Under the pieces are notes generated by a model. That model saw nothing but the letters and a program-made list of their open reading frames with translations, made no database searches and was not told the origin of the DNA. Position numbers and translations under genes: made by a program. A stretch of 64,000 nucleotides of DNA from Candidatus Saccharimonadota bacterium (GTDB lineage Bacteria; Patescibacteriota; Saccharimonadia; Saccharimonadales; UBA10212), in NCBI GenBank assembly GCA_022841445.1, contig JALHRM010000001.1, positions 387,777 to 451,776 of the forward strand. Direction: 5' to 3'. This document shows, piece by piece, positions 721 through 57,901 of this stretch (the first letter of the stretch is position 1; each line of letters opens with the position of its first letter).

Positions 721-1641
721 TTATTGAATGGCTTTTTGAGCGTGAAATTTTTCGTGCACCGCTTTTAAGTGTGGATCAGTCACATGAGTGTAAATTTGCG
801 TCGTGGCAATATTACTATGACCAAGCATAGCCTGGACCGACCGTAAGTCGGCACCATTCATAAGTAGATCCGTTGCAAAACTGTGCCGCAGCGTGTGTGG
901 AGAAACATGTTTCGTAATACCAGCTCGTAGAGCATGCATTGCAATGATCCGCTGGACACTCCGTGCGGTGAGCCGCTTATAGTCGCCGCTGGTATCAGCT
1001 TTTTTGTTACCGGCAATACGTATGAACAGCGGATTAGCATTATCCTGCCGGCTTTTTAGGTAATCATTTAATATTTCGGCGGCGCGCTGACTTATAAAAA
1101 TCGGTCTATCTTTTTGACCTTTTCCGCGCACACTGAATTCTCGACGTGCAGTGTTTATGTGTCCACGGTCAAGCCCGACAAGCTCTGATACCCGCAGCCC
1201 GCTGCTAAATAACAGCTCGATGATTGCGCGGTCGCGTAGGCCGGCACTATCTTTTTCACTTGGCTGATTTGCTAAACGGGTAACCTCTTCTGGCGTTAAG
1301 AACGTCACCTGGCTGCGTTTAGTACGGGCAAGTTCGATTTTGTCAGCAGGCATGGCAGGGATGCCTCGTTTGGCACAGAATTTCAAAAAACTACGCAGGG
1401 CTATTAAGTGATAATTTTGAGTCGATTTACCAAGTTCATCGCTACTGTAGGTACCGAGACGGTTAAGCCACATCCGCCATTTTCGGATCAATTCTGGAGT
1501 AATATCAGAAACTTTTATGTCGCCGGCAAAATCGCTCAGGCGGTTCAGGTAGTGTCGGTAATTATCAATCGTTTTTAAGGAGCGGTTTTGCTCAAGCTCT
1601 TGATACTGCAAGAAATCATCCAAAGCTGATTGGTAGTCCAT
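721..1641 (-). CDS. tyrosine site-specific recombinase, XerC/XerD family
   Basis: It has a core-binding N-domain (LDDFLQYQELEQNRSLKTIDNYRHYLNRL). Catalytic motifs are RVSEL, HTLRHSFATDLL and GHSNIATTQIYTHV. The ATG at 1641 (MDYQS) is preferred to the ORF-track start at 1707. Confidence 0.85.
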   Translation of the reverse strand: MDYQSALDDFLQYQELEQNRSLKTIDNYRHYLNRLSDFAGDIKVSDITPELIRKWRMWLNRLGTYSSDELGKSTQNYHLIALRSFLKFCAKRGIPAMPADKIELARTKRSQVTFLTPEEVTRLANQPSEKDSAGLRDRAIIELLFSSGLRVSELVGLDRGHINTARREFSVRGKGQKDRPIFISQRAAEILNDYLKSRQDNANPLFIRIAGNKKADTSGDYKRLTARSVQRIIAMHALRAGITKHVSPHTLRHSFATDLLMNGADLRSVQAMLGHSNIATTQIYTHVTDPHLKAVHEKFHAQKAIQ

Positions 1642-1781
1642 ATGCTTATTGTAGCAAACTAATGATTTAACGGGGGTTATATAGTAACGAACAATATTTG
1701 TATGCAACTAGGCTATCACTGCTAAAATTTGCTATACTAACAACTGAAATAGCAAATCAAATAAAGGATGGCTTTTAGACT

Positions 1782-3110: not shown

Positions 3111-3185
3111 TGGTGCCCCCGGACGGATTCGAACCGCCAGCTTCTCCTTAGGACGGAGTTGTTTTATCCATTGAACTACGGGGGC
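3111..3185 (-). tRNA. tRNA-Arg(CCT)
   Basis: The reverse complement GCCCCCGTAGTTCAATGG...CTCCGTCCTAAGGAG...GGTTCGAATCCGTCCGGGGGCACCA folds as a cloverleaf. The anticodon loop is GTCCTAA and CCA is encoded. Confidence 0.85.
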
Positions 3186-3796: not shown

Positions 3797-4780
3797 ATGG
3801 CTCGTTCTACCAAAAGGCATATATTAATAGCGTCATCTGAATATGACAGGCGCACGGTTCTACCTGTGGTCGAAAAACTTAAAAAACAAGGCTGCCAAGT
3901 CACTTACTACAAAAGCGATCTTGTCACCATGCCCACCAAGAAACTCAACGTACAAGTTGGAGACTATACCGACTTAATCAGTTACGACGAAACTGACATA
4001 AACGGAATTAATGTAGACGCGGCCTGGTATCGACGGCCGTCTAATTTTGTATATGAGGGCTTAACAGAGATTCAGCAGGTGCAAGTGGCTGATAATGTCG
4101 ATCGTTTGCAAAGAGCCATATGGCAATCTATAGCCGAACACAAATGGATTAATGATCCTATGCGGATGAATTTTGCCGATGATAAATTCACCCAACTACG
4201 CCTTGCCAGTAAATTAGGATTCAAAGTACCAAAAACGGTCATTAGCAATGATGGTCAGGTGTTGCTAGAGGCTTTCCCAAAAGCTGATGCTGTCTTCAAG
4301 CTGCCAAGTGGTACGATCAGCATGAATGGTGAAGCAAGAGAAATTTACACTAATGTTTTGAGCCAGAAAAAACTTATTGATCTGGTTGAAACTGGCAAAA
4401 AACTACTGCCTGGCATATATCAGGAAAGAATCCCTAAGGCCAAAGAGTGGCGGATAACAGTTGTTGGTGAGCAGGTATTTCCGGCGGCTATTTATACTGA
4501 TGTCACCGCCAAAGATGATTGGCGTAAACTTCAAACTACCGATGCTGTGCGTTTCAAAAAAGAGCAATTTGATCAAGCTCTTACCGGCAAACTTGTCACT
4601 TTCTTGAAGAAATTAAATCTTCGATATGGTGCATTTGATCTGATTGAAGCACCAAACGGAGAAATATATTTTTTGGAAATTAATCCTAACGGCCAATACC
4701 AGTGGCTAGAAGACGAGCTAGGCATGCCTATATCGAGTGCGATTGCCGATGAATTGGCCCGCATTGCTAACGCCAATTGA
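3797..4780 (+). CDS. ATP-grasp enzyme resembling MvdC/MvdD (MdnB/MdnC)-type ribosomal-peptide maturases
   Basis: Motifs seen are KRHILIASSEYDRRTVLPVVEKL (pre-ATP-grasp), AAWYRRPSNF, KFTQLRLASKLGFKVPKTVISND and EINPNGQYQWLEDELGMPISSAIADEL. Confidence 0.7.
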   Translation: MARSTKRHILIASSEYDRRTVLPVVEKLKKQGCQVTYYKSDLVTMPTKKLNVQVGDYTDLISYDETDINGINVDAAWYRRPSNFVYEGLTEIQQVQVADNVDRLQRAIWQSIAEHKWINDPMRMNFADDKFTQLRLASKLGFKVPKTVISNDGQVLLEAFPKADAVFKLPSGTISMNGEAREIYTNVLSQKKLIDLVETGKKLLPGIYQERIPKAKEWRITVVGEQVFPAAIYTDVTAKDDWRKLQTTDAVRFKKEQFDQALTGKLVTFLKKLNLRYGAFDLIEAPNGEIYFLEINPNGQYQWLEDELGMPISSAIADELARIANAN

Positions 4781-12741: not shown

Positions 12742-13125
12742 TTGGTTGTTAACCAGAATGGTAATTCGTGGTCACTCCCCAAAGGCCATATTGAACCAGG
12801 TGAAGATGAAGTAGCTGCTGCCATTCGCGAAGTTTACGAAGAAGCGGGCATTAAAGAAGTGAGAGTTATCAAGAAGCTCGGTCAGTACGAACGATACCGG
12901 ATTGGCCTCAGTGAAATAGAAGATAAGGCAATTCTGAAGTCCATAACAATATATTTAATGACTACGAACGAGGTAGACCTGCAGCCATTAGATCCGCATA
13001 ATCCAGAAGCTCGCTGGGTCAAGCCCGACGAGGTCGAATCGTTACTGACAAATCCGAAGGATAAGGCGTTCTACGCCGGCGTTCTACCTGAAGTTAAACA
13101 GTTTATCGCTACGCTTCAATCGTAA
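12742..13125 (+). CDS. NUDIX hydrolase. The N-terminal 13 codons lie in another frame from ATG 12698.
   Basis: The Nudix box is GHIEPGEDEVAAAIREVYEEAGI. The upstream MSSKTFSAGGVVV (12698-12736) is the expected first strand but is one frame off. Confidence 0.75.
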   Translation: MVVNQNGNSWSLPKGHIEPGEDEVAAAIREVYEEAGIKEVRVIKKLGQYERYRIGLSEIEDKAILKSITIYLMTTNEVDLQPLDPHNPEARWVKPDEVESLLTNPKDKAFYAGVLPEVKQFIATLQS

Positions 13126-14056
13126 TACTGGTTTGTTCCCATCTGGCGGGGTAATCTTTGCGATGGCCCTCTGGAACTCTCTTGAGCAATATCTCGTGGG
13201 CATGGTCGGTAGTGGTATTAGGATTATCAACTCGTCTTGCTACTTCGACGTAGCCTGGTCCACCATCGTCTCCATCGATTTCACTCGGGTTCCGATAAAT
13301 TCCGATTTTACCCTTCGGGATTTCCGCTAAATTACGCGCTACTCTTACCACCTGTTCACCATACTTACCAATCTTTATAAGGATTCTATCTGTACCGCTG
13401 TCGACAATTTCGCCAACTGCTTTTCTATCTGCAACCTCTAGTCGTACATTTCCAAACTTATCTGCAAATGCTACGCGTACTTGCTGTGTGATTTTTGGGA
13501 TGTCGGACAGCTCAGCCGGCATTAATATATCTGGTTGCTTCCGGGCATGGACAACGGTAGAAGAACGAAACTGCTCCCCCTCAGCCCATAAGCCACAATC
13601 ATTGGGTATACGATGTAGTGTCCTTATCAGCCCCCGAGCTGCAAGACCTCGTAAATATATTGCTGGACTATAAATTTCTAGGCCATTTTCGGTCGTTGCT
13701 ACATAGAATTCATCACCATTTGTGCCTGCTTCAAAATGTCCGTCTGTGCGGGGCGCGCAGTTGACAACAGCTACAACTGGTCTTTTACCGTTCTCTTGCG
13801 ATTGGCGTTCACGGAGCTGCCAGAGTAGTACTGCTGCGTAGTCACCAAGTGCCGGCCACGAGCCTATCGGGAATTCACTGTCTCTGAATCTATCCGTATT
13901 GCCAACCTGGGCGGTAAGTTTTGCATCAAAATCAACACTGTCTGTTACGCTTCTGCTAGCAGCTTCGGGGCTATGGGTTGGCAAAAAGCCGAAGACGTCA
14001 CTAAATTGTATAACTGCTTCTGGTGGTTGTCCGAGCGTTTCTGGTAGTGCTGGCAT
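13109..14056 (-). CDS. distant SAM hydrolase/halogenase (DUF62)-like protein
   Basis: The C-terminal VAFADKFGNVRLEV...IGKYGEQVVRVARNLAEIPKGKIGIYRNP...GYVEVARR resembles the DUF62 barrel pattern (iD.FGNlitNi ... G.lEiA). A GGAG SD is present. Confidence 0.35.
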   Translation of the reverse strand: MPALPETLGQPPEAVIQFSDVFGFLPTHSPEAASRSVTDSVDFDAKLTAQVGNTDRFRDSEFPIGSWPALGDYAAVLLWQLRERQSQENGKRPVVAVVNCAPRTDGHFEAGTNGDEFYVATTENGLEIYSPAIYLRGLAARGLIRTLHRIPNDCGLWAEGEQFRSSTVVHARKQPDILMPAELSDIPKITQQVRVAFADKFGNVRLEVADRKAVGEIVDSGTDRILIKIGKYGEQVVRVARNLAEIPKGKIGIYRNPSEIDGDDGGPGYVEVARRVDNPNTTTDHAHEILLKRVPEGHRKDYPARWEQTSITIEA

Positions 14057-14257: not shown

Positions 14258-14264
14258 ATTGCTT

Positions 14265-14849
14265 ATGTCTAAGCGAATAAATCCAGATAGCTCAGGTCCA
14301 GATCATTTTACAGCTCAAGAAATTCGTGTTTTTGGATTGGATGCTCTGAATATTAGATTAGGTATGCAGCCAAGTCCTGAGCAAGTTCACCAGCTTGCGG
14401 TTATTTCGGAAACTGTCTGTACTGATCCGGCAACCTATCGAGGCAGGGCTGCCGTAAACATAGACCCTACTGGATACCAAAGCACTTGTTTACCAACACG
14501 AGAAGGACGGTCATTGATGGTGTATTGGAATCCAGAAAATAATCCGGATGCTTCTGGTATGCCTGTGCCTGCCAACATAGTTGTGCGTGGTTTTCGCAGT
14601 TTTACAGAAAATGAGAAAAAGGCGCGCCTATCACTAAGAAGGCCAAAAGTATATGAAGTGCAGGATTCGCTATACATTACTGCTGATAACGAAGCACGAT
14701 TACTGAGGAAAATGTGGGGTGCTGGAAGGGCTTATGGTCGTGTGCCAATGCTCATGGCAACAAAGCCAGCCACAGCATCAGACGTGGAACTTGCTATAGT
14801 TGCAATAGTCGAAGCCGTACGTTATACAGAACGTACCCAAGAAGGTTAA
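14265..14849 (+). CDS. hypothetical protein (about 194 aa)
   Basis: A long ORF. ATG 14265 is preferred to the TTG at 14259 because of the promoter spacing. Confidence 0.5.
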   Translation: MSKRINPDSSGPDHFTAQEIRVFGLDALNIRLGMQPSPEQVHQLAVISETVCTDPATYRGRAAVNIDPTGYQSTCLPTREGRSLMVYWNPENNPDASGMPVPANIVVRGFRSFTENEKKARLSLRRPKVYEVQDSLYITADNEARLLRKMWGAGRAYGRVPMLMATKPATASDVELAIVAIVEAVRYTERTQEG

Positions 14850-14861
14850 GTATTTCTAAAA

Positions 14862-15989
14862 CTACGTCAGAAGTTCGATAAGTTTGTCGGCAGCTATGGC
14901 ATCTTTGACTTCGCGAGCAACTCGGCGTCCAACGCTCATGTTTTCGCCGTATAAATAACCTGAGTAGGGAGTAAACATTGTGCCTGGACTTCCGGGAATA
15001 CGCATGCTCACATCAAAAACTTTGAATTCTTCTTTAGGTGGACCAGCGCTGACAGCACCTTGGAGCGCAAATGGTCCGATGATTCCTGGCGGGTAGTGCT
15101 TTTGAGTGGCTGCTACAAATTTTTCACCGGCATCAAAGGCTTGTTCAAGTAGCGACTCTTTGATTGTGACCGACTGATGACCGTTTTCAATGTAACTTGG
15201 TCGGACGTATTTGAGAACTTCTTCTTGTTCGGGAGCAGTCAATCGCAATAAGCCATCGAGGTTGGTTTGACGGCGCGTGTCAGTACCAAGCAGTTCTAGT
15301 TCGCCGGTTAGTGGGGAATAGAAGAAGTTCAAGTTAAGCTGCGGTCCTAGTATGAATTCTTCGATCACGGCGATATCGAGCGACTGTTGGGTAATGGTGC
15401 CTGCGCTAACCATTTCTTGTGAGCGAATTTTGTATTCTTCGAAGCTATTTACCAAAAAGAATGCTCGTTCATATCCACGCGCGGCCTCACTTGCTTTGAC
15501 AATGACTAAGCGGTCAATGTCTTCAGGCTTTTCAAATTGCAGTGGAATCGAAAGTCCACCCTCCTGCAGTAAAAAGTACTGATTTCTCTCTTCATCACGT
15601 TCTTCTTTACGTACCAGTTCGCGGCTGCCGATGATTGGTACTAAAAAGTCGTTTTCAATCTCATCGAAGTTACAGTACACCCAAAAATAGCGACTATGTA
15701 CGAAGACAGCGTTTAAGTCTTGAAGCTGTTTTTGAATTTCGGGTTTTACGATGTCTCGAAAGTGGTCGACGTAAATAACATGGTCGACGCAACCACGGCC
15801 ATCGCGTGACTTAAAGTACTGGCTATAGGTTTTGTCGCGGCCTTTCTGGGCAACGATGACAGTTTCGAAACCTTCGGCTTTTGCTCCGCGAGCAACATCG
15901 AGTCCGCTATGGCCACCAAGGCTGGCGATACGAATGTTTTTAGGGTCATAACTTTTCAGAACTTTAGCAACATTATCACGTGAAATCAT
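14862..15989 (-). CDS. purP: PurP-family ATP-grasp (archaeal-type FAICAR synthetase-like), paralogue 2
   Basis: IASLGGHSGLDVARGAKAEGFETVIV, FYSPLTGELELLGTDTRRQTN, IGPFALQ and RIPGSPG align with M. jannaschii PurP as recalled. The start MISRDN at 15989 follows the upstream stop. Confidence 0.8.
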   Translation of the reverse strand: MISRDNVAKVLKSYDPKNIRIASLGGHSGLDVARGAKAEGFETVIVAQKGRDKTYSQYFKSRDGRGCVDHVIYVDHFRDIVKPEIQKQLQDLNAVFVHSRYFWVYCNFDEIENDFLVPIIGSRELVRKEERDEERNQYFLLQEGGLSIPLQFEKPEDIDRLVIVKASEAARGYERAFFLVNSFEEYKIRSQEMVSAGTITQQSLDIAVIEEFILGPQLNLNFFYSPLTGELELLGTDTRRQTNLDGLLRLTAPEQEEVLKYVRPSYIENGHQSVTIKESLLEQAFDAGEKFVAATQKHYPPGIIGPFALQGAVSAGPPKEEFKVFDVSMRIPGSPGTMFTPYSGYLYGENMSVGRRVAREVKDAIAADKLIELLT

Positions 15990-15990
15990 A

Positions 15991-16992
15991 TTAGTTGAAA
16001 ATCCTTTCCAGGGCGTTTTGTTCTTCAGCGAGGCGGATTTCCATGGCAATGCGCCGGCCAGTGCTCATCGGTTTGTTATAGCGTAGGTCGCTGTATGGTG
16101 AACCATGGATGTACGGGTTGGTGCCAGCCACGATACGAGCAGATATCTCGAAGACGAAGAAGTCTAAATCTGGAGTGACAATGGTTTCGAGACAGAATGG
16201 CCCAAACAATCCACGACTATCCCATTTTTTGGATGCGGCGATTACTTGCTCACCCATTTCAAAAATTTCCGGTAGCAGAGATTCACGGACAACAAGCGGA
16301 GTGTTACCCATGATGTTGTAGGACGTTTCGATGTTTAAGTCTAATTGGTCTTTGGCAGAAATTCGCCCGATAGAGTCAACATTACTCTCGTAACGACGGT
16401 CAAAACCCATCAGTTCCAGTTCTTCGGTGAGTGGGGAATAAAAGTAATGGATGTAAACTGGCGCACCGACAATATATTCTTGGATGATGTATTTTTGGTC
16501 AGGGTGTTGTTTGATTTTTTCTTCAAATTCTTTTTGATTATGTGCCAAGAAGTAACCTTTGCCACCCTGAGCGCCATAGAATTTGATGATTACTGACGTA
16601 TCGATATCAGATGGTTTCTCAAAGATTCTTGGTAATTTTAGTCCTGCCTCTGCGAGCCACTGCCGCTGTTTTTTGCGGTCGGTTTCCCAGGCGAGTACTT
16701 TCTTATTGCCAAAATATGGGGTTTTGAGTTCGTCAATCTCAGCTAGGCTAAATGCGTTAACAAAAGAAGCATGCGGAATCAGCACAGCATTCATAGCGGC
16801 TAGTTCATCGTCACGGTCTTTAGCGTCAGCAAACTTATCGACGGCGATTATATGATCAGCAACCCGAAAAGATTCGTAGGGTTTGAGTCGTTTCTTTTCA
16901 GCAATCAAAACAGTCTCAAAACCTTCATCCCGACCACCCTTCAAGATTTGCAGCGCGCTATGACTCCCCAACGTACAAATTTTGTGTTTCAC
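15991..16992 (-). CDS. purP: PurP-family ATP-grasp (archaeal-type FAICAR synthetase-like), paralogue 1
   Basis: ICTLGSHSALQILKGGRDEGFETVLI, IHYFYSPLTEELELMGFDRRYESNVD, VVRESLLPEIFEMGE, FGPFCLE and FEISARIVAGTN are present. The GTG at 16992 has a GAGAGGTG SD. Confidence 0.85.
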   Translation of the reverse strand: MKHKICTLGSHSALQILKGGRDEGFETVLIAEKKRLKPYESFRVADHIIAVDKFADAKDRDDELAAMNAVLIPHASFVNAFSLAEIDELKTPYFGNKKVLAWETDRKKQRQWLAEAGLKLPRIFEKPSDIDTSVIIKFYGAQGGKGYFLAHNQKEFEEKIKQHPDQKYIIQEYIVGAPVYIHYFYSPLTEELELMGFDRRYESNVDSIGRISAKDQLDLNIETSYNIMGNTPLVVRESLLPEIFEMGEQVIAASKKWDSRGLFGPFCLETIVTPDLDFFVFEISARIVAGTNPYIHGSPYSDLRYNKPMSTGRRIAMEIRLAEEQNALERIFN

Positions 16993-17118
16993 TTTGAACA
17001 CCTCTCATTTAAGAAGTTATATTGCTACTAAGTATACCAGTAAAACTATATTAACAGAGACAAAAATTAATGGTTGGCTCATTCTTGGCAATAATTTTGT
17101 TAGAATGGGTCTTGATGT

Positions 17119-17145
17119 GCCACCTTAGCTCAGCTAGCTAAAGCA
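17119..17145 (+). pseudogene. tRNA 5'-half-like fragment
   Basis: GCCACCTTAGCTCAGCTAGCTAAAGCA is an acceptor 5' strand plus D-arm. No anticodon or T arm follows. It lies 24 nt upstream of tRNA-Thr. Confidence 0.5.
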
Positions 17146-17168
17146 ACACTCCGCACATTATAAAATTT

Positions 17169-17244
17169 GCCGTCGTAGCTCAGTTGGTAGAGCGGCGCTT
17201 TCGTAAAGCGTAGGTCACCGGTTCGATCCCGGTCGACGGCTCCA
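17169..17244 (+). tRNA. tRNA-Thr(CGT)
   Basis: GCCGTCGTAGCTCAGTTGGTAGAGCGGCGCTTTCGTAAAGCGTAGGTCACCGGTTCGATCCCGGTCGACGGCTCCA. The anticodon loop is TTCGTAA and the discriminator is U. Confidence 0.9.
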
Positions 17245-17520: not shown

Positions 17521-17796
17521 ATGAAAGATGATAAAAAACGTTTTAATGAGCTCGTGGAACTCATTTATTCGGCAGACAGTAAGGCGCTGCTCAATGATCT
17601 ACTTGTTGGCATCACAACGCCTGCCGAGCGCGAAGCACTTACTAATCGGATTGAAATTGTCCGCAGACTATTAAAAGGTGACCCACAAGCAGATATTGCC
17701 GCTGACCTTGGTGTTGGTATAGCTACTGTTACTCGCGGTTCACGTGAACTTGCCGATGGCAGGTTCAAAATATTGCGAGGAAATAATGACGATTAA
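17521..17796 (+). CDS. TrpR/YerC/YecD-family DNA-binding protein
   Basis: LLNDLLVGITTPAEREALTNRIEIVRRLLKGDPQADIAADLGVGIATVTRGSRELADG fits the YerC/TrpR helix-turn-helix pattern. Confidence 0.75.
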   Translation: MKDDKKRFNELVELIYSADSKALLNDLLVGITTPAEREALTNRIEIVRRLLKGDPQADIAADLGVGIATVTRGSRELADGRFKILRGNNDD

Positions 17797-17935
17797 TGCT
17801 ATTCAACTAAACTCCTGGCGGTATTGGAGTGCTCCAGGAGATTTGCTTGGCTAATCAGTATCGACTTTAACAAGTAAATCCTCCTGGCAGTCAGGGTGGG
17901 GCTTACTAATTTGAATTTAAGAAACGAGAAATTCC

Positions 17936-18919
17936 ATGAAAATCATTCATGCGCCGGAATCACCTATGCCAGAACCATACAAAACCTACGTTGCACAGCG
18001 TGCCGAAAATATTGCGGCCGTATTGGGAAGCATTAGGGCGCTACAGACCGAACAAGACATGCAGCTTTGTTCTCGGGCAATCACTCCAGATGAAGTTTTG
18101 GTGGATGGGGATGTGTATGGTTGTGTTGTCGGCGATACGAACGCTGGCTATAAGTCTGTATTGTACAAATCCAATAACTCAGGTATCGCTACACATTCTG
18201 CCGAAGATGCGCTTCGCTATGTCGAAGCATCGCTGCATATGGGCAATAGGGTAAGGATGAAAGATCCGCGGGAGTCAGATGGTATGGGGCAAAGTGTCGT
18301 AGAAACTTGCGAACAGGCCGAAGCAGTTCTTGAGGCGTTCGATGCACTTAGCACGACTGGTATCGTACTCATGCCGCATATTGCACGTATTACTGACCGG
18401 TTGAGTTTTGGGCGCATCAATCTTGAAGGTGCAGGTTCATTCCAATACGTTGGCCGGGAAGAAGTGCTGCGCCGAAACGGAGGTGAACTATTTGCTGGCG
18501 CCGATATTGCTCTTAGTCGAGGGGATAGTTTGCATGTTGAACGCGCCATGCGTCAGCTACACATAGAGCCCCGCGCTCTGGAGGTGGCAGAAAGAGCAAT
18601 AGCGCGTTTCAAAACTCATGCGATACGCAGCGGACGGGTGAGTGTTGATGTACTTTCCGGTTACACAGACAGCGGCAAAAAAATTACGGCTGCTGTAGAT
18701 GTAACACCGAGGGTAGGTGGCAATACGCCGGCCGAAGTACTGGCCATCAGCGCATTGATGGCCTATCGCTCTGGAATCGCCTATGCATCGGGCCGGTTAG
18801 TCTACGACCCACGGTCCGCCTCACGACCTGAAGATGCAACTACCTTTGTCGACACCGATACGCTGCTCATCCATGCTAGAGTTCAATCATTAGAGGAGTG
18901 CGACCGAGATGCAGACTAA
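17936..18919 (+). CDS. hypothetical protein (327 aa)
   Basis: A long ORF whose 3' end overlaps the next gene by 11 nt, suggesting translational coupling. Confidence 0.5.
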   Translation: MKIIHAPESPMPEPYKTYVAQRAENIAAVLGSIRALQTEQDMQLCSRAITPDEVLVDGDVYGCVVGDTNAGYKSVLYKSNNSGIATHSAEDALRYVEASLHMGNRVRMKDPRESDGMGQSVVETCEQAEAVLEAFDALSTTGIVLMPHIARITDRLSFGRINLEGAGSFQYVGREEVLRRNGGELFAGADIALSRGDSLHVERAMRQLHIEPRALEVAERAIARFKTHAIRSGRVSVDVLSGYTDSGKKITAAVDVTPRVGGNTPAEVLAISALMAYRSGIAYASGRLVYDPRSASRPEDATTFVDTDTLLIHARVQSLEECDRDAD

Positions 18920-19601
18920 AAAAATACTGGTAATTGCGGCTCTGCACGGTGATGAAACTTTCGGATTGAAAGTTGTCGCCAATCTGCGTGCCGCAAATCA
19001 CCCAAATATTGTCACATTCATTGCTCACCCAGAGGCAATCGCTAAGCGAAAGCGATTTCTTGATACAGATCTAAATCGAAGTTTTGGATTAAGTAGTCAT
19101 TCGAAAGAAGTTCAAATCGCCGAATCAATACGGGCGCAGGTTGTAGCCAGTAAGTATGATCTACTGCTTGACATACATACATCGCACGCCGATGTAGGCG
19201 AACTCGCGATATTGGCAAACCACTCACCTCAACTTATTGCCGTATCAGAGGCTCTCGGTATGAAAAATGTAGTCGTCATGCCATACGTGCAATCCCGACA
19301 CTCACTTATAGGTCAGTTCTCAAAGACTGGTATTTCGCTGGAGTATGGTCTTGGCTACCGTTCGGATAAACTTGCCCGACAGGTTGCCGAACGGGTACTT
19401 GCACTTCCAGCAATTAAGCTGGATCAAAAAGTCCCCCGGAATATTCCAACATTTACGGTGTTACGAACAATCAATAAAGACGAAGTTGGCGATAGGTTAC
19501 TCATAAACTACAAATTTGATAAGCAGCTAGGAGGGTATCCGGTGCTCAGCGCCGTAGACAACTATCCTGATCACCGCGGATTTCTTGCCAGCAAGGTATA
19601 A
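18909..19601 (+). CDS. succinylglutamate desuccinylase/aspartoacylase (AstE/AspA) family zinc hydrolase
   Basis: KILVIAALHGDETFGLKV is the HxxE zinc site. LLLDIHTSH supplies the second His. Confidence 0.65.
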   Translation: MQTKKILVIAALHGDETFGLKVVANLRAANHPNIVTFIAHPEAIAKRKRFLDTDLNRSFGLSSHSKEVQIAESIRAQVVASKYDLLLDIHTSHADVGELAILANHSPQLIAVSEALGMKNVVVMPYVQSRHSLIGQFSKTGISLEYGLGYRSDKLARQVAERVLALPAIKLDQKVPRNIPTFTVLRTINKDEVGDRLLINYKFDKQLGGYPVLSAVDNYPDHRGFLASKV

Positions 19602-21954: not shown

Positions 21955-22389
21955 CTAGTTTTTTCGAGTAATCCTAACCGAATCAGCCGCGTACTCGGCA
22001 CTGTAGCGTAGGTAAGATGTTCTGTTATAGCGATGCAGTACAGTCTGGGCTGCCTTTATGATATCTGCCGCGGGCATCGGACTCATCTTCGCCAATGATT
22101 TACCCATCAATGTACTAATAATTGTGGTGGTGAGTTCGGCGGCAGATTCGTACTGATCATTTTCTGGCAGAGATTTTAGGATGCTGATGAAAAGTTTGTC
22201 CCTCAAAAATGGTTTGATGCTCCCATCTTCATAGCTGACAACTATTGATGATGCAGTGTCGGGGGATTCAATAGTAGTAAAAACTGCCGCACAATGCCGG
22301 CAACTGCGACGTCGCCAAATATTATTAGAGCGTTTCTGGAGCCGACTGTTAGTTACGTTAGTATTTCCAGAACAATATATGCATACCAT
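21955..22389 (-). CDS. nrdR: transcriptional repressor NrdR
   Basis: The zinc ribbon is CIYCSGNTNVTNSR...RRRSCRHCAAVFTTIE. An ATP-cone follows. Confidence 0.85.
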   Translation of the reverse strand: MVCIYCSGNTNVTNSRLQKRSNNIWRRRSCRHCAAVFTTIESPDTASSIVVSYEDGSIKPFLRDKLFISILKSLPENDQYESAAELTTTIISTLMGKSLAKMSPMPAADIIKAAQTVLHRYNRTSYLRYSAEYAADSVRITRKN

Positions 22390-23389: not shown

Positions 23390-25243
23390 ATGAGCGATCA
23401 ACAATCAGACGCAGAAGTCATGAGGCACAGTTTGGCGCATATCATGGCCTACGCAGTTCAGAATCTCTGGCCGGAAGCACGTTTTGGCGTTGGGCCAGTA
23501 GTGGAGAATGGATTTTATTATGATATTGAAGTACCCGGTGTCGCTCTAACAGATGGTGATTTTAAAAGAATCACTACTGAGATGGCTAAAATCATCAAAC
23601 AGGATGTGCCGTTCGAACGGATTGAAATGCCCATCGATGATGCAATTGCATGGGCGAAAGACGCCAAGCAGCCCTATAAAGAGGAGCTACTTAATGACTT
23701 AAAACGTGCCGGTACGACGGTCGCCAAAGACCTCAACAGTGAAGAACTTGGCACCATTACCGAAGGAACATCTAAGGTAGACAACGTTTCTTTCTACAAG
23801 TGCGGTGATTTTACCGATCTGTGCCGTGGCCCTCATGTTGCATCAACTGGCAAAGTCGGAGCTCATAAATTGACCCGGATTGCCGGAGCCTACTGGCGCG
23901 GCAAAGATACGAATCCTCAGATGCAGCGCCTCTACGGCGTAGCTTTTCCGGATAAGCAGCAGCTTGATCAATATTTCGTAATGCTCGAAGAAGCCAAGAA
24001 GCGTGATCATCGGGTACTCGGCGAACGGCTTCAACTCTTCTTTATAAGTCAGGATGTTGGCGCTGGTTTACCCCTGTTAATGCCGCGCGGTGAAACGATC
24101 AAGCGGCAGTTAATGGATTACATGCGGGAGCAGGAAGAAGCCGCTGGCTACCAGTATGTATCAACTCCGGTGCTGACCCAGCGTAAATTGTATGAACGTT
24201 CCGGCCATGCCGATTATTATCTCGAAAATATGTATGCCACCCAAGAAGACGAAGAGGGCAACCAGTTTTTCATCAAGCCAATGAACTGCCCGCACCACCA
24301 TATGATTTACGAAAAACTAGTAAAAAGTTACCGAGATTTACCGCTTCGACTTAGTGAGCATGCCGGCTTATATAGGTATGAGCTATCCGGTACATTGACG
24401 GGCTTAATCCGCATGCGAGGCCCGATTACCCAGAATGATTCGCACACCTATGTAGCCGGAGACCAATTAAAACAGGAATTTCGTGATGTTCTTGAGATGT
24501 TCCGAGACACGTACGCCCAGACCGGGATTGAAGATTATTGGTTCAGGCTGTCGCTACCGGATTTTGAAAAGGATAAGTTTGCCAAAGAAAGTGACAAATG
24601 GGATCTAGCTGCCGGAGTAATTCGCGAAGTATTGGAAGAATCAAAACTGCCTTATGTTGAAGGAGTCGGCGAAGCGGCCTTTTATGGACCAAAACTCGAT
24701 GTACAGATCAAAAACGTCATGGGTAAAGAAGATACCATCGCTACCGTGCAGATCGATATATTGGTGCCAGAGCGGATGGGGCTTACTTATGTAAATACTG
24801 AAGGTCAAGAAGAAAGGCCTTTCGTGATCCATAAATCCATTATGGGGGCGTTTGAGCGTTTCATGGCAATACTTTTGGAGAAGACCGCAGGCAATTTGCC
24901 GGTGTGGCTAGCCCCTGAACAGCTGCGCGTAATCACGCTTAATCAAACTGATGAAATAGTTAATTTTGCCGAAAGCGTTGTAGAAAAAGCAAAGGAACTC
25001 GGCCTCCGTGTTACGGTTGATAACGACAATGAGTCAGTTGGCAAAAAAATCCGTTCAGCTGAGACCATGAAAGTGCCATACAGTATTGTTATTGGTGGTC
25101 AGGAAGTCGAAAGCGGGGAAGTTTCGCCGCGTATTCGGCAGGATATGGTAGTGGTTAACGCGCCAACTCGTCATCCGATCGATAATTTCCTGAAATCGAT
25201 TGCCAACGAAGCAAAATCCCGCGTTTCTAAATCATCTCTATGA
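23390..25243 (+). CDS. thrS: threonine--tRNA ligase (no N-terminal TGS domain)
   Basis: HSLAHIMAYAVQNLWPEARFGVGPVVENGFYYD is the editing domain. Class II motifs include FIKPMNCPHH and GLIRMRGPITQNDSH. A C-terminal anticodon-binding domain is present. Confidence 0.9.
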   Translation: MSDQQSDAEVMRHSLAHIMAYAVQNLWPEARFGVGPVVENGFYYDIEVPGVALTDGDFKRITTEMAKIIKQDVPFERIEMPIDDAIAWAKDAKQPYKEELLNDLKRAGTTVAKDLNSEELGTITEGTSKVDNVSFYKCGDFTDLCRGPHVASTGKVGAHKLTRIAGAYWRGKDTNPQMQRLYGVAFPDKQQLDQYFVMLEEAKKRDHRVLGERLQLFFISQDVGAGLPLLMPRGETIKRQLMDYMREQEEAAGYQYVSTPVLTQRKLYERSGHADYYLENMYATQEDEEGNQFFIKPMNCPHHHMIYEKLVKSYRDLPLRLSEHAGLYRYELSGTLTGLIRMRGPITQNDSHTYVAGDQLKQEFRDVLEMFRDTYAQTGIEDYWFRLSLPDFEKDKFAKESDKWDLAAGVIREVLEESKLPYVEGVGEAAFYGPKLDVQIKNVMGKEDTIATVQIDILVPERMGLTYVNTEGQEERPFVIHKSIMGAFERFMAILLEKTAGNLPVWLAPEQLRVITLNQTDEIVNFAESVVEKAKELGLRVTVDNDNESVGKKIRSAETMKVPYSIVIGGQEVESGEVSPRIRQDMVVVNAPTRHPIDNFLKSIANEAKSRVSKSSL

Positions 25244-25788
25244 GTACGCTAAGCACCGACAAGCAAAAACCGATATTGGCGGTGGATCTGGATGATGTAC
25301 TGGCAACTTCTAACGAAGTGCTAAATAATTTCATTAATGAGCGTTATGGAACCAGCTACAAACTAGATGACTACAACGGAGGTAGTCTCAAGGATATTTG
25401 GAAAATTTCATGGCTGGAAGTTAAGCAACGCCTGGATGTATTCGACAAAGAGGTGGGGCAAGGTGCAATTAAGCCAGACCCTGAGACTATTGTGGTTCTG
25501 AAAAAATTGAAAGTAAAATACGACCTTGTGATTATTACTGCACGTCATTCGCACTTTACGGTGATCGATGATGACACTGTAGTGACCAAGGCTCATGCTA
25601 TGCGCGAAATTGGTGCATTTTGTTTAATCGATGACAATGTTGAGCACTGCGAGATCGCCGCGGCTGAGGGGCTGGAAGCGATACTTTTTGGTGAGCTACC
25701 CTGGAACAGGAATGCGATACTGCCACCCGGAGTGCGGCGTGCAAAAAATTGGCAGGAGGTTGCAGAATACTTCGATGAGCAGAGTTGA
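25240..25788 (+). CDS. HAD-superfamily 5'(3')-deoxyribonucleotidase (NT5C)-like hydrolase
   Basis: The DxDxV motif is ILAVDLDDVLA. VIITARHS and CLIDDN are also present. The start overlaps the thrS stop. Confidence 0.6.
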   Translation: MSTLSTDKQKPILAVDLDDVLATSNEVLNNFINERYGTSYKLDDYNGGSLKDIWKISWLEVKQRLDVFDKEVGQGAIKPDPETIVVLKKLKVKYDLVIITARHSHFTVIDDDTVVTKAHAMREIGAFCLIDDNVEHCEIAAAEGLEAILFGELPWNRNAILPPGVRRAKNWQEVAEYFDEQS

Positions 25789-35295: not shown

Positions 35296-35988
35296 ATGTG
35301 GCAAAAAACGAACAATGGGTTGTATCAAAAATTTGAGTTCAAGGATTTTGATGAAGCGTTTAATTTTATGACGAGTGTTGCGGTGCTGGCGAGGCAACAC
35401 AATCATCATCCGGTCTGGAAAAATAACTGGAATAAAGTAGAAATCTGGCTTTCAACGCATAGTGCAGATGGCGCAATTACCGCCAAGGATGAAGCACTTG
35501 CCAGTGCAATTAGTGAACAAATAACAGATGAAAAATCCGATAATGTTGAAAAAAAGTCAACAACACGGGTAAACATTAAGGAAGCCAAATTGTATACGGA
35601 TGGTGGTTCTCGCGGGAACCCAGGGCCATCTGCCGGAGCGTATGTTATTTTTGATCTCGATGACACCATCGTAGAAAAAAACGGCTACTATATCGGCATT
35701 ACGACGAATAATCAGGCAGAATATCAGGCGCTTCGGCGCGGGCTCGAACGTGCTCGTGATTTGAATATCAGAAAACTACACGTGTATATGGACAGTCTAC
35801 TTGTTATTAATCAAATGAAGGGCTTATTCAAGGTAAAAAACCGCGAACTTTGGGCGGTGTATGAGGCGGCATCCCAACTTGTTATTGAATCATTTGAAAG
35901 TGTTACGTTCACACATGTACCCAGAGAATTCAATAAAGATGCTGATGCAGAAGTGAATCGTGTCTTGGACGAAGAAGAAAGTAACTGA
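35296..35988 (+). CDS. fusion protein: pterin-4a-carbinolamine dehydratase-like domain plus RNase HI domain
   Basis: The N-terminal FDEAFNFMTSVAVLARQHNHHPVW...LSTHS is a PCD/DCoH signature. The C-terminus carries RNase H DEDD motifs: LYTDGGSRGNPGPS, TNNQAEYQAL, YMDSLLV and NKDADAEVN. Confidence 0.7.
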   Translation: MWQKTNNGLYQKFEFKDFDEAFNFMTSVAVLARQHNHHPVWKNNWNKVEIWLSTHSADGAITAKDEALASAISEQITDEKSDNVEKKSTTRVNIKEAKLYTDGGSRGNPGPSAGAYVIFDLDDTIVEKNGYYIGITTNNQAEYQALRRGLERARDLNIRKLHVYMDSLLVINQMKGLFKVKNRELWAVYEAASQLVIESFESVTFTHVPREFNKDADAEVNRVLDEEESN

Positions 35989-36032: not shown

Positions 36033-36416
36033 GGGCACAGGGTTGCTGGCTGGCTGCTTCTTAATTTATTAGGGAGAGGAAAGTCCGGGCAGCGTAGGGC
36101 ATGGCAGTTGTTAACGGCAACCGGGGGAAACCCTAGGGAAAGTGCCACAGAGACGACACAGCCACAGGCGTTATTGCGCCTTGGCGATAGGTGAAATGAG
36201 TGGGGTAAGAGCCCACAGCCGGTTACGGTGACGTAATCGGGAGGTAAACCCTGCCTGCTGCAAGGAGACGGATTTACAACTTTTAGTAGTTGTGGTGCCC
36301 GCCAGATCCGTCGTTATAGAACCGCGTGAGTCTGTTGGCAACAGCAGACCTAGATAGATGGTCAGCGTCTTGGTTTCCAAGATACAGAACCCGGCTTATA
36401 GGCAACCCGGTGCACT
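36033..36416 (+). ncRNA. rnpB: RNase P RNA (bacterial type A)
   Basis: GAGGAAAGTCCGGGC and ACAGAACCCGGCTTA form the P4 strands. P1 is GCACAGGGTTGC / GCAACCCGGTGC. A TACAAT -10 lies at 36023. Confidence 0.85.
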
Positions 36417-50569: not shown

Positions 50570-52169
<1,600 letters not shown>

Positions 52170-52439: not shown

Positions 52440-55400
52440 ATGCTTAAGCGCTTAGCGCGTCGGTCTAAAGACGCCAGCAAAAACAATAAAGCGACCAAGA
52501 AACCGGCTATTAAAAATCAGCTTTCTTATGAAGAGGCTAAAGCCCGCAAGTTATTCCATAGCACGCCGGTTTGGGTTAGTGTCGTTGTGGTGCTACTTTT
52601 TAGTTCGTTCACTCTGTATAAAATAGCTGAAAATATTGGATCATCAGAAGCGGCTATACTCTTCAATGCTGATTATGAAAATGGTACTCAAACACCGCCT
52701 TGGGGCGGAGGGCAGTGTATAGCATCTTGGAGTTGTACGGTGTCTACTAACGCACCGCGGGAAGGTCGCTACTCGGCACGCTATGAAGTACGGGATGGTG
52801 ACTGTCCGGTAACGGGAGACAGGTGCTATGGTGAGCGCGCCGAAAGGCAGGGTGGTAGTGCGCCGAGTAGTGCTGAGGGGCAAGACCGCTGGTACAAATG
52901 GAGTATGAAGCTGGAAAACGGCTTTCCTAACAGTTCCGGCTGGCAGATACTTGGCCAGTGGCATTCCACCGGCAATGGACCTCCACCAGTAGAAATGAAC
53001 CTTTCTGGTCGTAATATCATGTTGCAAATAAACAAAGCTCGATTTGCTGGTGACACTAATCCTCCGGCGACTTTCCCTTGGCAGTACACTCTGCAGACTG
53101 GTCAGTGGTATGACTTCAAGTTCCATATTAAGTGGTCGGCTGGCGGGGCTGGGTTAGTCGAAGTCTGGGTGAACGGTCAAAAGCGTCCTACGTATACAGG
53201 TGCGACACTGCGGCCAAATGAAGGAACTTACTTTAAGCAGGGCTACTACCGTTGTACTTGTGTTAATGGAACAGGAATCGTTTACTACGATAATGTTCGA
53301 GCAACAACTACTGAGGCAGAACTTGGGGCAGGCGCGAGCACTCCAAGCCCCACTCCCACCCCAACACCGACTCCAACGCCTAGCCCCACCCCCACCCCAA
53401 CACAGCCATCCGACAGAGTGACTGTCGAAACTGCCCTAAGGAGTTTGACTGTACCGTGGGCGATGGAATTTACAAAAGACGGGCGGTATATGTACTTTAC
53501 GGAGCGGCCTGGACGCATCCGGGTTGCTGAACGGGGGGCGAACGGACAGCTAACGTTGAAACCCACTATCGCGACAGTCCCGGTAGGAAGTTCCGGTAAC
53601 GAAGAAGGCTTGCAGGGCATAGCACTTGACCCTAACTTTGCCAGTAACGGCTACCTCTACGTATATTATTCGATTAACACATCAAGCGGGAAGGGTAATC
53701 GCCTGGCTCGCTACACCGTGAATCAGTCGAATTTTACGGCCGGCTCACCAGTGACGCTGATTGATAATATCCCTGGCTACCAGTTCCATGATGGCGGACG
53801 CATTAAGTTTGGGCCTGATGGCTACCTCTATGTTGCGACGGGTGATGCTTCTGATAATGGCAGCCAAAACAGCCGTATCGCTCAAAATCTAGACTCACTA
53901 GGGGGTAAAATCTTGCGTATCCGGCCAACACCTGGCAACCTCACTCCGCTAGATAATCCATTCGGTACCACCGGCAATCGGTCGTTAGTATGGAGCTATG
54001 GTCACCGTAACCCTCAGGGTCTGGCCTGGAACCCGGTCAATAATGAAATGTGGGCAACGGAGCATGGACCAACTGGTACACCATGCTGTACTGACGAGGT
54101 TAATCGCATCGTGAAAGGTGGTAACTACGGCTGGCCAAAATTCTATGGAACTAACTCAAATTCTAATTTCTCGACTCAGTTCACCAATCTCACTTTGTCC
54201 AACACTATCGCTCCAGTTCGGTCTAGCGGTTCAGGAATTTGGGCTCCCGGTGGAGCCACTTTCTATGCAGGCAATCAGCTTACGGGGAATTGGAAGAATA
54301 GCCTGATGTTCACAGGTCTTGGTATTCAGGGGCGCACTGGTGCGCGGGCGTTATACAGGCTTAACTTAAATACCGATCAGCGTACGGTTCGTAGTATTGA
54401 AGAACTTTATAAGAACCAGTTTGGCCGAATACGTGACGTTATCCAAGCACCTGATGGGTCACTGTATCTGGCGACCAGTAACCGTGATGGACGGGGGAGT
54501 CCAACTAGCGATGATGACAGGATTATACGGCTAAAACCGGATGCTGTTATCCAAACTCCGACCCCGACACCTACGCCGACTCCCGTTCCAACTCCTACTC
54601 CCACGCCTCCAGCTCCGACCCCGACACCTACGCCGACTCCAGTCCCCATTCCACCGCAGAAACCACCGGTATCTATTCCTAAAGTGTTCCTTTCTACCAC
54701 TGCTGCCTCGGTGAATGTCGGACAATCTGTCAATTTATCATGGACTTCTACCGATAGTCCTACTAGCTGCAGGGCTTCTGGAGATTGGACTGGTACTAAA
54801 TCAGTTTCTGGTTCTCAAGCAACCGGAGCGCTTACTAACGTAAAAACGTACACCTACACAATTACCTGCAGCAATACAGCCGGAACAGCGAGCGCTTCGC
54901 GGTCAGTTATCGTCATACCAAGCAAACCGGTAGTTACATTACGCAGTTCATCTAGTTCTGTTACAGTCGGTCAATCCGTTAATTTATCATGGACTGCCAC
55001 TAATAACCCTACAAGTTGTACGGCCACAGGTGACTGGAGCGGCGTAAGGGCGGGTAACGGCGCACAGTCTAGCGGCGCACTAATAGCCGCGCGCGCTCAC
55101 ACATATACGATTACTTGCGTAAATGCGGGGGGCACAGGCAGCGCAGCGCTCTCTGTAAATGCTCGCGCAGTCGGTATCGCTACACCAACCATCCAAAAAC
55201 CAACCGTTAAATTGACGGCGACTCCAACTACGCTAAACAGTGGTCAAAAATCAATCCTGCAGTGGTCTACAGGTAATAATCCGTCTTCTTGTACAGCATC
55301 TGGTGATTGGAGCGGCACAAAATCTACCTCCAACGGCAGTCAGGGAACTGGCGCACTTACTTCTGGAAAAACGTATACCTTAACATGTACTAACGCCGGA

Positions 55401-55811
55401 GGCAGTACATCGGCATCAACATCGGTGTCTATAGTAGCTATTGCTGATAATGGAGCGGTAACCGTTAATGAGACTCCCGTACCGGGCTTAAGTGCACTAA
55501 GTCCTGCCCAGGTGAGCGACTCTGACCAGTCGACAATATCCGATAGTATTGAGCAGTACGGCGGTGATGCGGTAACAGAGGGCAGCCTCGAAGGAGAATC
55601 AAAGCAGAGTGGTTCCGCTATAAAGACGGTTGCCGTAACAGGTAGTATCTTATTGGCGCTCTCAGCCGCGGCAGTGGCATTTCTGGCGCTTCGCGCTAGA
55701 ATGGGCAGCCGTATGATGTCAGACAGCATTGTCACCGGTAATCATCAGGAAGTAGTCTACCCCGAAAATCAGAACATCGACGTGTTTGGTAATACCCACG
55801 ATAAAAAATAG
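52440..55811 (+). CDS. membrane-anchored multidomain exoprotein: lyase-type jelly-roll domain, PQQ-type sugar dehydrogenase beta-propeller and 3 Ig-like repeats
   Basis: It starts with an N-terminal TM segment. The jelly-roll domain shows YSARYEVRDGD...RWYKWSM...GQWH..GPPPVEMNL and is followed by a PT linker. The sorbosone/glucose dehydrogenase motifs are GLQGIALDPNF, FHDGGRIKFGPDGYLYV, GHRNPQGLAW and GGNYGWP. A second PT linker precedes three repeats of about 100 aa (VGQSVNLSWT...SC.A.GDW.G...YT.TC.N..G). The protein ends in a C-terminal TM segment. Confidence 0.75.
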   Translation: MLKRLARRSKDASKNNKATKKPAIKNQLSYEEAKARKLFHSTPVWVSVVVVLLFSSFTLYKIAENIGSSEAAILFNADYENGTQTPPWGGGQCIASWSCTVSTNAPREGRYSARYEVRDGDCPVTGDRCYGERAERQGGSAPSSAEGQDRWYKWSMKLENGFPNSSGWQILGQWHSTGNGPPPVEMNLSGRNIMLQINKARFAGDTNPPATFPWQYTLQTGQWYDFKFHIKWSAGGAGLVEVWVNGQKRPTYTGATLRPNEGTYFKQGYYRCTCVNGTGIVYYDNVRATTTEAELGAGASTPSPTPTPTPTPTPSPTPTPTQPSDRVTVETALRSLTVPWAMEFTKDGRYMYFTERPGRIRVAERGANGQLTLKPTIATVPVGSSGNEEGLQGIALDPNFASNGYLYVYYSINTSSGKGNRLARYTVNQSNFTAGSPVTLIDNIPGYQFHDGGRIKFGPDGYLYVATGDASDNGSQNSRIAQNLDSLGGKILRIRPTPGNLTPLDNPFGTTGNRSLVWSYGHRNPQGLAWNPVNNEMWATEHGPTGTPCCTDEVNRIVKGGNYGWPKFYGTNSNSNFSTQFTNLTLSNTIAPVRSSGSGIWAPGGATFYAGNQLTGNWKNSLMFTGLGIQGRTGARALYRLNLNTDQRTVRSIEELYKNQFGRIRDVIQAPDGSLYLATSNRDGRGSPTSDDDRIIRLKPDAVIQTPTPTPTPTPVPTPTPTPPAPTPTPTPTPVPIPPQKPPVSIPKVFLSTTAASVNVGQSVNLSWTSTDSPTSCRASGDWTGTKSVSGSQATGALTNVKTYTYTITCSNTAGTASASRSVIVIPSKPVVTLRSSSSSVTVGQSVNLSWTATNNPTSCTATGDWSGVRAGNGAQSSGALIAARAHTYTITCVNAGGTGSAALSVNARAVGIATPTIQKPTVKLTATPTTLNSGQKSILQWSTGNNPSSCTASGDWSGTKSTSNGSQGTGALTSGKTYTLTCTNAGGSTSASTSVSIVAIADNGAVTVNETPVPGLSALSPAQVSDSDQSTISDSIEQYGGDAVTEGSLEGESKQSGSAIKTVAVTGSILLALSAAAVAFLALRARMGSRMMSDSIVTGNHQEVVYPENQNIDVFGNTHDKK

Positions 55812-57624: not shown

Positions 57625-57701
57625 TGGTGGGGTTACCAGGACTCGAACCTGGGACCTCGTCATTATCAGTGACGCGCTCTAACCAGCTGAGCTATAACCC
57701 C
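57625..57701 (-). tRNA. tRNA-Ile(GAT)
   Basis: The reverse complement is GGGGTTATAGCTCAGCTGGTTAGAGCGCGTCACTGATAATGACGAGGTCCCAGGTTCGAGTCCTGGTAACCCCACCA. Confidence 0.9.
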
Positions 57702-57753
57702 TTATATATTCATGTTGTTAATAGTTTGTTTAAAATTGCCTGGAGGCAATTTC

Positions 57754-57791
57754 CAGTGACGCGAGGGAGCTAGCTGAGCTACAGTCCCTCG
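57754..57791 (-). pseudogene. degenerate copy of the tRNA-Ile 5' half
   Basis: The reverse complement CGAGGGACTGTAGCTCAGCTAGCTCCCTCGCGTCACTG shares TAGCTCAGCT and CGCGTCACTG with tRNA-Ile at the same 8-nt spacing. Confidence 0.5.
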
Positions 57792-57901
57792 TCAGACTTT
57801 ATGCCCCTGTCTCGTTTTGCCTTTTGGCAAAAGCTTCGACTTATGGCATGAGTCTTCCTCTCAAAATTGCAAATTAGAAATTCACAATTTTGGTATTGTT
57901 G

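Follow-up and report, generated by a model that had tools for sequence, protein, structure and literature searches.

The stretch of DNA considered here, referred to below as the window, comprises 64,000 nucleotides of contig JALHRM010000001.1 of an ultrasmall Candidatus Saccharimonadota bacterium; it is bacterial, as the initial annotation had assumed, since it carries bacterial 16S and 23S rRNA genes and a bacterial RNase P. Its minus strand harbours two adjacent genes, designated PurP-A and PurP-B, which encode full-length proteins of the PurP family of synthetases of FAICAR (the ribonucleotide of 5-formamidoimidazole-4-carboxamide) and appear to be the saccharibacterial counterparts of a gene pair described from archaea. 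The pair and the features adjoining it are as follows.

15991..16992, minus strand: PurP-A, 333 amino acids, cluster I (Ib-like), predicted to be of the canonical FAICAR-synthetase type from Pfam, NCBIfam and structure matches and signature residues.
14862..15989, minus strand: PurP-B, 375 amino acids, cluster II PurP-like paralogue according to Pfam and NCBIfam matches and signature residues.
15987..16009, minus strand: junction of the two genes, with GGAAAGGA (16009-16002), TAA (15993-15991), one base and ATG (15989-15987).
16993..17168, minus strand: intergenic region between PurP-A and a divergent tRNA-Thr gene, presumed promoter region.
17169-17244: tRNA-Thr, upstream of PurP-A and divergent from it.

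The open frames listed for the two genes cover 15991..17001 (-) and 14862..16049 (-). The likely start of PurP-A is the GTG at 16992, which is preceded by GAGAGG 8 nt upstream, the frame being open to a second GTG at 17001, and that of PurP-B is the ATG at 15989, with AAGGA 12 nt upstream. With these starts, the deduced products are identical in sequence to the database entries P0242 (PurP-A) and P0121 (PurP-B), which come from a single NCBI contig of 464,451 bp. The stop codon of PurP-A and the start codon of PurP-B lie one base apart (TAA-T-ATG), exactly as had been read initially, and this layout suggests that the two genes may be translationally coupled. Consensus scans for promoters and terminators upstream of the pair were unremarkable and gave no convincing promoter, and neither a ZTP nor any other riboswitch upstream of the pair was found at the Rfam gathering score in the window or in eight relatives.

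Both gene products consist of an N-terminal DUF1246 domain and a C-terminal DUF1297 ATP-grasp domain, the Pfam matches being above the gathering cut-offs with full-length coverage (DUF1246 1.3e-40 and DUF1297 1.7e-72 for PurP-A; 3.7e-34 and 2.8e-62 for PurP-B). All six NCBIfam PurP models (PRK13278 group) match both proteins end to end. Among the solved structures, PurP-A is closest to PF1517 of P. furiosus (3e-111, 375 bits), followed by MJ0136 of M. jannaschii (3e-99, 335 bits), and PurP-B matches MJ0136 at 3e-83 (283 bits) and PF1517 at 4e-42. The initial annotation had described two adjacent, full-length minus-strand PurP genes at these coordinates and had named profile searches as a check on whether they belong to some other ATP-grasp family; Pfam, NCBIfam and the solved structures agree with it, and both genes are placed in PurP. 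The sequence blocks which it listed as shared occur exactly in PurP-A, but only as variants in PurP-B (LGGHSGL, FFYSPLTGELELLGTDTRRQTN, IKESLL, GPFAL and FDVSMR).

The PurP-like proteins of archaea have been divided into cluster I, with the subclusters Ia, which includes the active MJ0136, and Ib, which includes PF1517, and cluster II (Brown et al. 2011, PMC3261824), the latter being the PurP III of Zhang et al. 2008. Cluster I is recognised by a (K/R)GG(K/R)G loop and Asn258, and cluster II (e.g. PF0421) by a loop two residues longer and His258, while His27 and Arg314, which touch the formyl group, are invariant in both (PMC3261824). The signature residues of the present pair were read in MJ0136 numbering from an alignment of 140 sequences, the roles of the residues being taken from the same paper. 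PurP-A shows a GAQGGKG loop, Asn258, Tyr229, Glu230, His27, Ser94, Ser266 and Arg314, and therewith the cluster I loop and Asn258, save that the first residue of the loop is Gln (QGGKG); in A-type proteins of Saccharibacteria this position is occupied by Gly, Ala or Gln. PurP-B has neither the cluster I loop nor Asn258. Its loop, SEAARGYERAFF, is two residues longer than that of cluster I, and with EAARGYERAFF and His258 it corresponds to the longer loop with basic residues and the His258 of cluster II. Compared with cluster I, Asn258 is exchanged for His, Tyr229 for Arg, Glu230 for Gln and Glu310 for Asp, Lys264 is found in addition, and Tyr stands at position 94 instead of Ser, with His27, Ser266 and Arg314 retained. 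Hence, the contacts to the formyl group (His27, Arg314) and to the 5'-phosphate of AICAR, the ribonucleotide of 5-aminoimidazole-4-carboxamide (Ser94, Ser266), are complete in PurP-A (four of four), and PurP-B lacks Ser94 alone. Because the cluster II signature is common to all 85 of the 85 B-type sequences, PurP-B is ascribed to cluster II, and, judged by their sequences, PurP-A and PurP-B are members of two ancient archaeal PurP lineages, cluster I and cluster II, respectively.

The two proteins share 34% amino acid sequence identity over 347 aa. In the neighbour-joining trees with bootstrap that were built for this study, the A-type sequences, together with MJ0136 and PF1517, split from the B-type sequences at 100% support, which indicates that the genes are an ancient archaeal paralogue pair and not a local duplication; a recent tandem duplication is ruled out by the low identity and by the depth of this split. 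The designation of the genes as tandem paralogues in the initial annotation is therefore correct as to the family, but the pair is not merely tandem, as a cluster I gene and a cluster II gene have been passed on jointly as one unit. The subtrees of A and of B are congruent, each mirroring the other. Most archaea with these types have one member of each (Brown et al. 2011, PMC3261824), and both types were found in the same 61 taxa (Cruz et al. 2019, PMC6486802).

Each of the two queries has more than 7,000 matching proteins in the database, and the closest named homologues of both belong to metagenome-assembled genomes (MAGs) of Candidatus Saccharimonadales, Saccharibacteria and Patescibacteria, with identities of 65-74% for PurP-A and 71-81% for PurP-B among the top matches. 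Thousands of homologues are encoded on contigs labelled Saccharibacteria, including contigs of 0.5-1.2 Mb, and the pair in the order A then B recurs in thousands of metagenomic relatives. Gene order was compared in related loci (L numbers) fetched via PurP-A and in 80 metagenome loci fetched via the PurP-B alignment. A B-type gene lies directly downstream of the A-type gene in every related locus fetched through PurP-A, and, at 62% identity or above, nearly all loci keep the order A then B; in 15 related loci the two genes overlap by ATGA, and in others they are within a few bases of each other. In named archaeal loci of Bathyarchaeia and Micrarchaeota (L010, L012, L013), the order is B then A, with a 4-bp overlap. 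A scan of contigs with exact PurP-A peptide patterns gave just four archaeal loci and none from Saccharibacteria, as the patterns were too specific, and a Rosetta-stone test revealed no A-B or other informative fusion among the best 150 family representatives.

In the trees, the window and its closest relative L001 are grouped at 100% bootstrap, and the Saccharibacteria-like B clade has 73% support, which rises to 100% once L047 and L062 are included. The neighbouring clade (L037, L039, L044 and L094; 80-83% support) includes a MAG to which NCBI gives the label Woesearchaeota, namely L094 (GCA_016192945.1, contig JACPTE010000024.1), the A protein of which is 65% identical to PurP-A of the window; its gene order is A then B, with a gene for an EamA transporter inserted between the two. 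The two genes have thus passed as one unit between archaea and Saccharibacteria, in a direction that can only be inferred. The clade of L094 points to gene sharing between bacteria of the Candidate Phyla Radiation (CPR) and DPANN archaea. In another locus of the same clade, a 131-nt tRNA match (L044:14097-14227) suggests an intron of the archaeal type. Six loci of a low-GC, probably archaeal clade (L046, L056, L061, L080, L092, L093) carry a gene with an S-layer-like domain between or beside A and B, the pair being 1-2 kb apart, and a further low-GC clade has a lone B gene beside an archaeal-type ThrRS, 5-formyltetrahydrofolate (5-formyl-THF) cyclo-ligase and gcvT/gcvH.

The published descriptions confine the family to archaea, PurP having been called "exclusively distributed in Archaea" (PMC4177761) and "only present in archaeal genomes" (PMC6486802), and our literature search found no paper linking PurP to Saccharibacteria or the CPR. 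Annotation pipelines, on the other hand, already label these saccharibacterial proteins. The pair is therefore best described as a bacterial member of an already known family.

The genomic context of the pair in many relatives is that of purine biosynthesis. In L004 its neighbours are purB, purC, purK and purE; L008 and L032 have purL, purE, purK, purC and purB, then A and B, then guaA, with purM in addition in L008; and L006 and L021 have a HAD hydrolase, an aminotransferase, a full-length purH and purL. In the Woesearchaeota-labelled L094, the pair is part of a complete pur operon, and the order is glyA-folD-purM-purL-purQ-purE-HAD-purC-purB-A-EamA-B...guaA. Among the 80 metagenome loci, the most frequent neighbour families were guaA (29), 5-formyl-THF cyclo-ligase (16), purL (13), purA (13), purB (12), purE (11), purC (10), purF (8), purD (7) and gcvT/gcvH (7-8), and FolD and GlyA adjoin the pair in several of them. 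The initial annotation had suggested that the pair may serve salvage, or a different ligation, rather than de novo purine synthesis; the comparison with relatives, in many of which the pair stands inside de novo purine operons, does not favour this idea. A HAD-family hydrolase directly downstream of PurP-B or within the same purine operon recurs in Saccharibacteria-like loci as well as in the clade with the Woesearchaeota label (L004:10132-10773, L006:10152-10814, L021, L036, L037, L094:7007-7648), and a nucleotide phosphatase is one possibility for its function.

PurP does not exclude PurH in these organisms. A search with saccharibacterial PurH gave five contigs of the same size as PurP-carrying contigs (895738, 149812, 39608, 21490 and 3841 bp). 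A conventional pur pathway with purH, which the initial annotation had regarded as the finding that would speak against its proposal, is thus met with in relatives, at least five contigs sharing purH and PurP. PurP and PurH coexist in Methanosarcinales as well. Given their coexistence in some Saccharibacteria, replacement of PurH by PurP for want of folate is no general rule. The saccharibacterial PurH itself (e.g. L021:13087-14697) shows 53-61% identity among its best 120 matches, being far more divergent than the PurP pair (65-81%), and is often labelled "hypothetical protein" at NCBI.

Purifying selection on both PurP genes is very strong. In the comparison of the window with L001, PurP-A shows 82% nucleotide and 97.9% amino acid identity (proportion of synonymous differences, pS, 0.77; of nonsynonymous differences, pN, 0.017), and PurP-B shows 80% and 95.7% (pS 0.76, pN 0.037), which gives pN/pS ratios of ∼0.02-0.05 with synonymous sites saturated, whereas the neighbouring proteins are only 59-89% identical. 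Selection of this strength implies that the genes are in use. Both frames are intact, the GC content is uniform and the flanks are syntenic with those of L001, so that pseudogenes and an assembly artefact are ruled out by the uniform GC content, the synteny with L001 and the purifying selection.

The other genes of the window that bear on the surroundings of the pair are listed below.

1782-2291: ndk, confirmed.
3797-4780: MvdD/RimK-like ATP-grasp gene.
12742-13125: Nudix gene, confirmed.
13109-14056, minus strand: "DUF62-like" gene of 315 aa, sub-threshold match to SAM_HAT_C (E 0.003, 18 bits against a cut-off of 25.5).
14259-14849, plus strand: open reading frame (ORF) of 196 aa, convergent to the 315-aa gene, with no family match.
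17521-19601: TrpR-like gene (91 aa), followed by DUF3182 (ATP-grasp-like) and an AstE/AspA-like deacylase gene.
21955-22389: NrdR, confirmed.
25240-25788: NT5C, confirmed.

The nucleotide-handling genes which had been noted around the pair are real in the case of ndk, NrdR, NT5C and the Nudix gene, but the "DUF62-like" assignment remains below threshold and the association is not conserved. The 315-aa gene and the 196-aa ORF are database singletons that recur only in L001 (77% and 59% identity), and the Nudix gene is missing at the homologous position of this 98%-identical relative. A conserved link of the pair to the Nudix, "DUF62-like", 196-aa, DUF3182 and AstE genes was consequently rejected, the last four recurring only in L001 and the first not even there. 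With flanking genes, the TrpR-like one included, that recur at best in L001, and with ndk, nrdR and NT5C 7-13 kb away from the pair, the nucleotide-handling neighbourhood does not constitute a functional cluster.

A few observations concern other parts of the window. The DUF3182 gene overlaps that of the AstE/AspA-like deacylase, and the TrpR-like/DUF3182/AstE arrangement is kept in L001; together with the MvdD/RimK-like gene, these genes may form a small peptide/amide ligase-hydrolase module. The rRNA genes, on the plus strand, are unlinked, 16S and 23S being more than 10 kb apart (the stretches concerned are 50570-52169, 57625-57978 and 62708-64000), and the 16S match extends over 1600 nt against a model of 1533 nt. 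Between 16S and 23S lie a gene for a 1123-aa glucose/sorbosone-dehydrogenase and polysaccharide-lyase protein (52440-55811) and, on the opposite strand, tRNA-Ile and tRNA-Ala. The ORF at 35296-35988 (+) joins a pterin-4a-carbinolamine dehydratase domain and an RNase H/RVT_3 domain in one frame and is adjoined by the RNase P RNA gene (36038-36414). A tyrosine recombinase of the phage-integrase family (721-1707, minus strand) near tRNA-Arg(CCT) (3111-3185) may mark the edge of an integrated element.

Taken together, PurP-A and PurP-B are regarded, with moderate confidence, as saccharibacterial orthologues of the archaeal cluster I/cluster II PurP pair, which most likely still feed the synthesis of inosine monophosphate (IMP) in this bacterium. 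To judge from its sequence, PurP-A would be a ligase of the ATP-grasp type: by activating formate with ATP, it would formylate AICAR (ZMP) to FAICAR, the last step but one on the way to IMP, with no need for 10-formyl-tetrahydrofolate. PurP-B, which retains the formyl-contact residues, the Ser266 contact to the 5'-phosphate and the core ATP-grasp residues, but has an invariant phosphate loop of its own and an altered set of base contacts, would be an ancient, differently specialised partner that is nearly always encoded beside PurP-A and probably co-translated with it. The remaining pur genes of the genome would lie outside the window; their presence elsewhere is made more likely by the ancestral context of the pair, which is a purine operon.

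Several points weigh against the participation of the pair in IMP synthesis. Neither protein reaches an NCBIfam equivalog cut-off for FAICAR synthetase (formate--phosphoribosylaminoimidazolecarboxamide ligase, EC 6.3.4.23), the best scores being 414 bits against 580 for PurP-A (NF009779) and 318 bits against 556 for PurP-B (NF009780). A tblastn search of the 64-kb window with around 20 families of purine and one-carbon genes from relatives, purH included, gave no match, and a Pfam survey of most of its larger ORFs detected no purine gene, which bears out the initial statement that no other pur gene is present there; in the nearest relatives as well (L001, L014, L017, L020, L023, L025), no pur gene was found within ∼10 kb of the pair. 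Linkage to pur genes is absent from the window and the nearest relatives, but occurs in archaea and in many of the relatives that are more distant. Many carriers of the pair encode PurH and FolD too, so that the pair does not simply stand in for a folate route that is missing. A complete curated Saccharibacteria genome was reported to be without de novo nucleotide synthesis (10.1101/211649), and a survey of 2,041 genomes likewise reports none (PMC11659515). Finally, activity has been demonstrated for MJ0136 alone (PMC3261824), while PF1517 (Ib) and PF0421 (II) were inactive as AICAR formyltransferases according to the passage of PMC3261824 that cites these assays, which means that AICAR formylation is proven for cluster Ia only.

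The last observation could have a different ground. It is tentatively conceivable, although we would not call it probable, that PurP-A and PurP-B are the subunits of one obligately two-part enzyme, in which the cluster II protein is either a required partner in formylation or the "missing" IMP cyclohydrolase. If true, this would explain why neither PF1517 nor PF0421 was active by itself, why the genes of the pair are nearly always adjacent and often overlapping, in both orders, in archaea as well as in Saccharibacteria, and why an IMP cyclohydrolase cannot be identified in many Crenarchaeota and Pyrococci. The saccharibacterial pair, whose host is probably mesophilic, would in that case offer a convenient system for a question which dates from 2008-2011.

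A role outside de novo synthesis is possible, but less likely than one within it. In this reading, the lineage would have lost de novo purine synthesis, and the pair, by the same chemistry but in another physiological role, would turn AICAR/ZMP or host-derived AICA-riboside into FAICAR and then IMP, as orphan salvage or detoxification. The loss of purine neighbours here and in the nearest relatives leaves room for such a role in this lineage, the two reports on nucleotide dependence (10.1101/211649; PMC11659515) keep it alive, and the very strong purifying selection shows in any case that the genes are in use. However, the pair here has no linked gene for a kinase, phosphoribosyltransferase, transporter or IMP cyclohydrolase, an ancestor used the pair within de novo operons, as can be seen from the nearest pur-bearing relatives, and the absence of pur genes from a mere 64 kb of the genome says little.

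That one or both proteins, PurP-B especially, catalyse some other ATP-dependent ligation or cyclisation is quite improbable. The invariant altered loop of PurP-B and its base contacts His258, Arg229, Gln230 and Lys264 would be compatible with another substrate, as would the sub-threshold equivalog scores of both proteins and the fact that activity has been demonstrated for none of the cluster II proteins, PF1517 and PF0421 having been inactive in the AICAR assay as cited in PMC3261824. Yet the pair is embedded in purine operons across archaea and Saccharibacteria, His27, Arg314 and Ser266, the residues that in MJ0136 touch the formyl group and the 5'-phosphate, are retained in both proteins, and PurP-A has the full cluster I signature. 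The notion of decaying remnants of a lost pathway, or of an archaeal fragment assembled or binned into a bacterial contig, to which the archaea-only wording of the literature (PMC4177761, PMC6486802) lends some colour, is effectively refuted by the pN/pS ratios, intact frames, uniform GC content and syntenic flanks and by the thousands of homologues on Saccharibacteria-labelled contigs, some of them of 0.5-1.2 Mb.

For this genome, the two genes are an otherwise ordinary biosynthetic pair. Beyond it, the pair of cluster I and cluster II is present in full in a large bacterial clade, the Saccharibacteria, although PurP is called archaea-only in the papers, and the position of the pair beside a DPANN-labelled clade adds a further case of gene sharing between CPR and DPANN, alongside RuBisCO (PMC6389311). 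Some Saccharibacteria keep substantial sets of de novo purine genes despite the general picture of nucleotide auxotrophy. The strict pairing also sharpens the biochemical question of what role the cluster II PurP plays and why Ib and II proteins are inactive alone.

Among known systems, PurT and PurK belong to the same ATP-grasp superfamily, PurP-A weakly matching the purK and ATP-grasp_3 models, and PurT uses formate and ATP too; both, however, represent other families with other substrates, and their scores are far below those of the PurP models. PurH, the bifunctional AICAR transformylase/IMP cyclohydrolase that is the usual bacterial enzyme, carries out the same step from AICAR to FAICAR and is encoded beside the PurP pair in L006 and L021 and shares contigs with it in several Saccharibacteria, but it has an unrelated fold, uses 10-formyl-tetrahydrofolate instead of formate and ATP, and has no gene in the window. 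MJ0136 of M. jannaschii (PDB 2R7K-2R7N, cluster Ia) has the same two-domain ATP-grasp architecture and aligns end to end with both proteins, sharing His27, Ser266 and Arg314 with both and the Gly-rich loop, Asn258, Tyr229 and Glu230 with PurP-A. It is a single-copy enzyme of methanogens without PurH, in contrast to the two paralogues of a bacterium described here, of which PurP-A is nearer to cluster Ib and PurP-B departs at the loop and the base contacts, both scoring below the equivalog cut-offs. The archaeal Ib and II pair, represented by PF1517 and PF0421 of P. furiosus, is likewise among the closest systems. The present pair differs from it in its saccharibacterial host, in the order A then B, shared with the Woesearchaeota-labelled clade and reversed in L010, L012 and L013, in the first loop residue of the A proteins (Gln, Gly or Ala rather than Lys/Arg), in the Tyr of PurP-B at the place of Ser94, and in its detachment from pur genes in this genome. 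Nevertheless, PurP-A is closest to PF1517 and PurP-B has every stated hallmark of cluster II, the two genes co-occur, adjoin and often overlap each other and, in relatives, show linkage to purB, purC and guaA, in the manner of the archaeal pair (PMC3261824), whose genes in Sulfolobales adjoin each other and purB.

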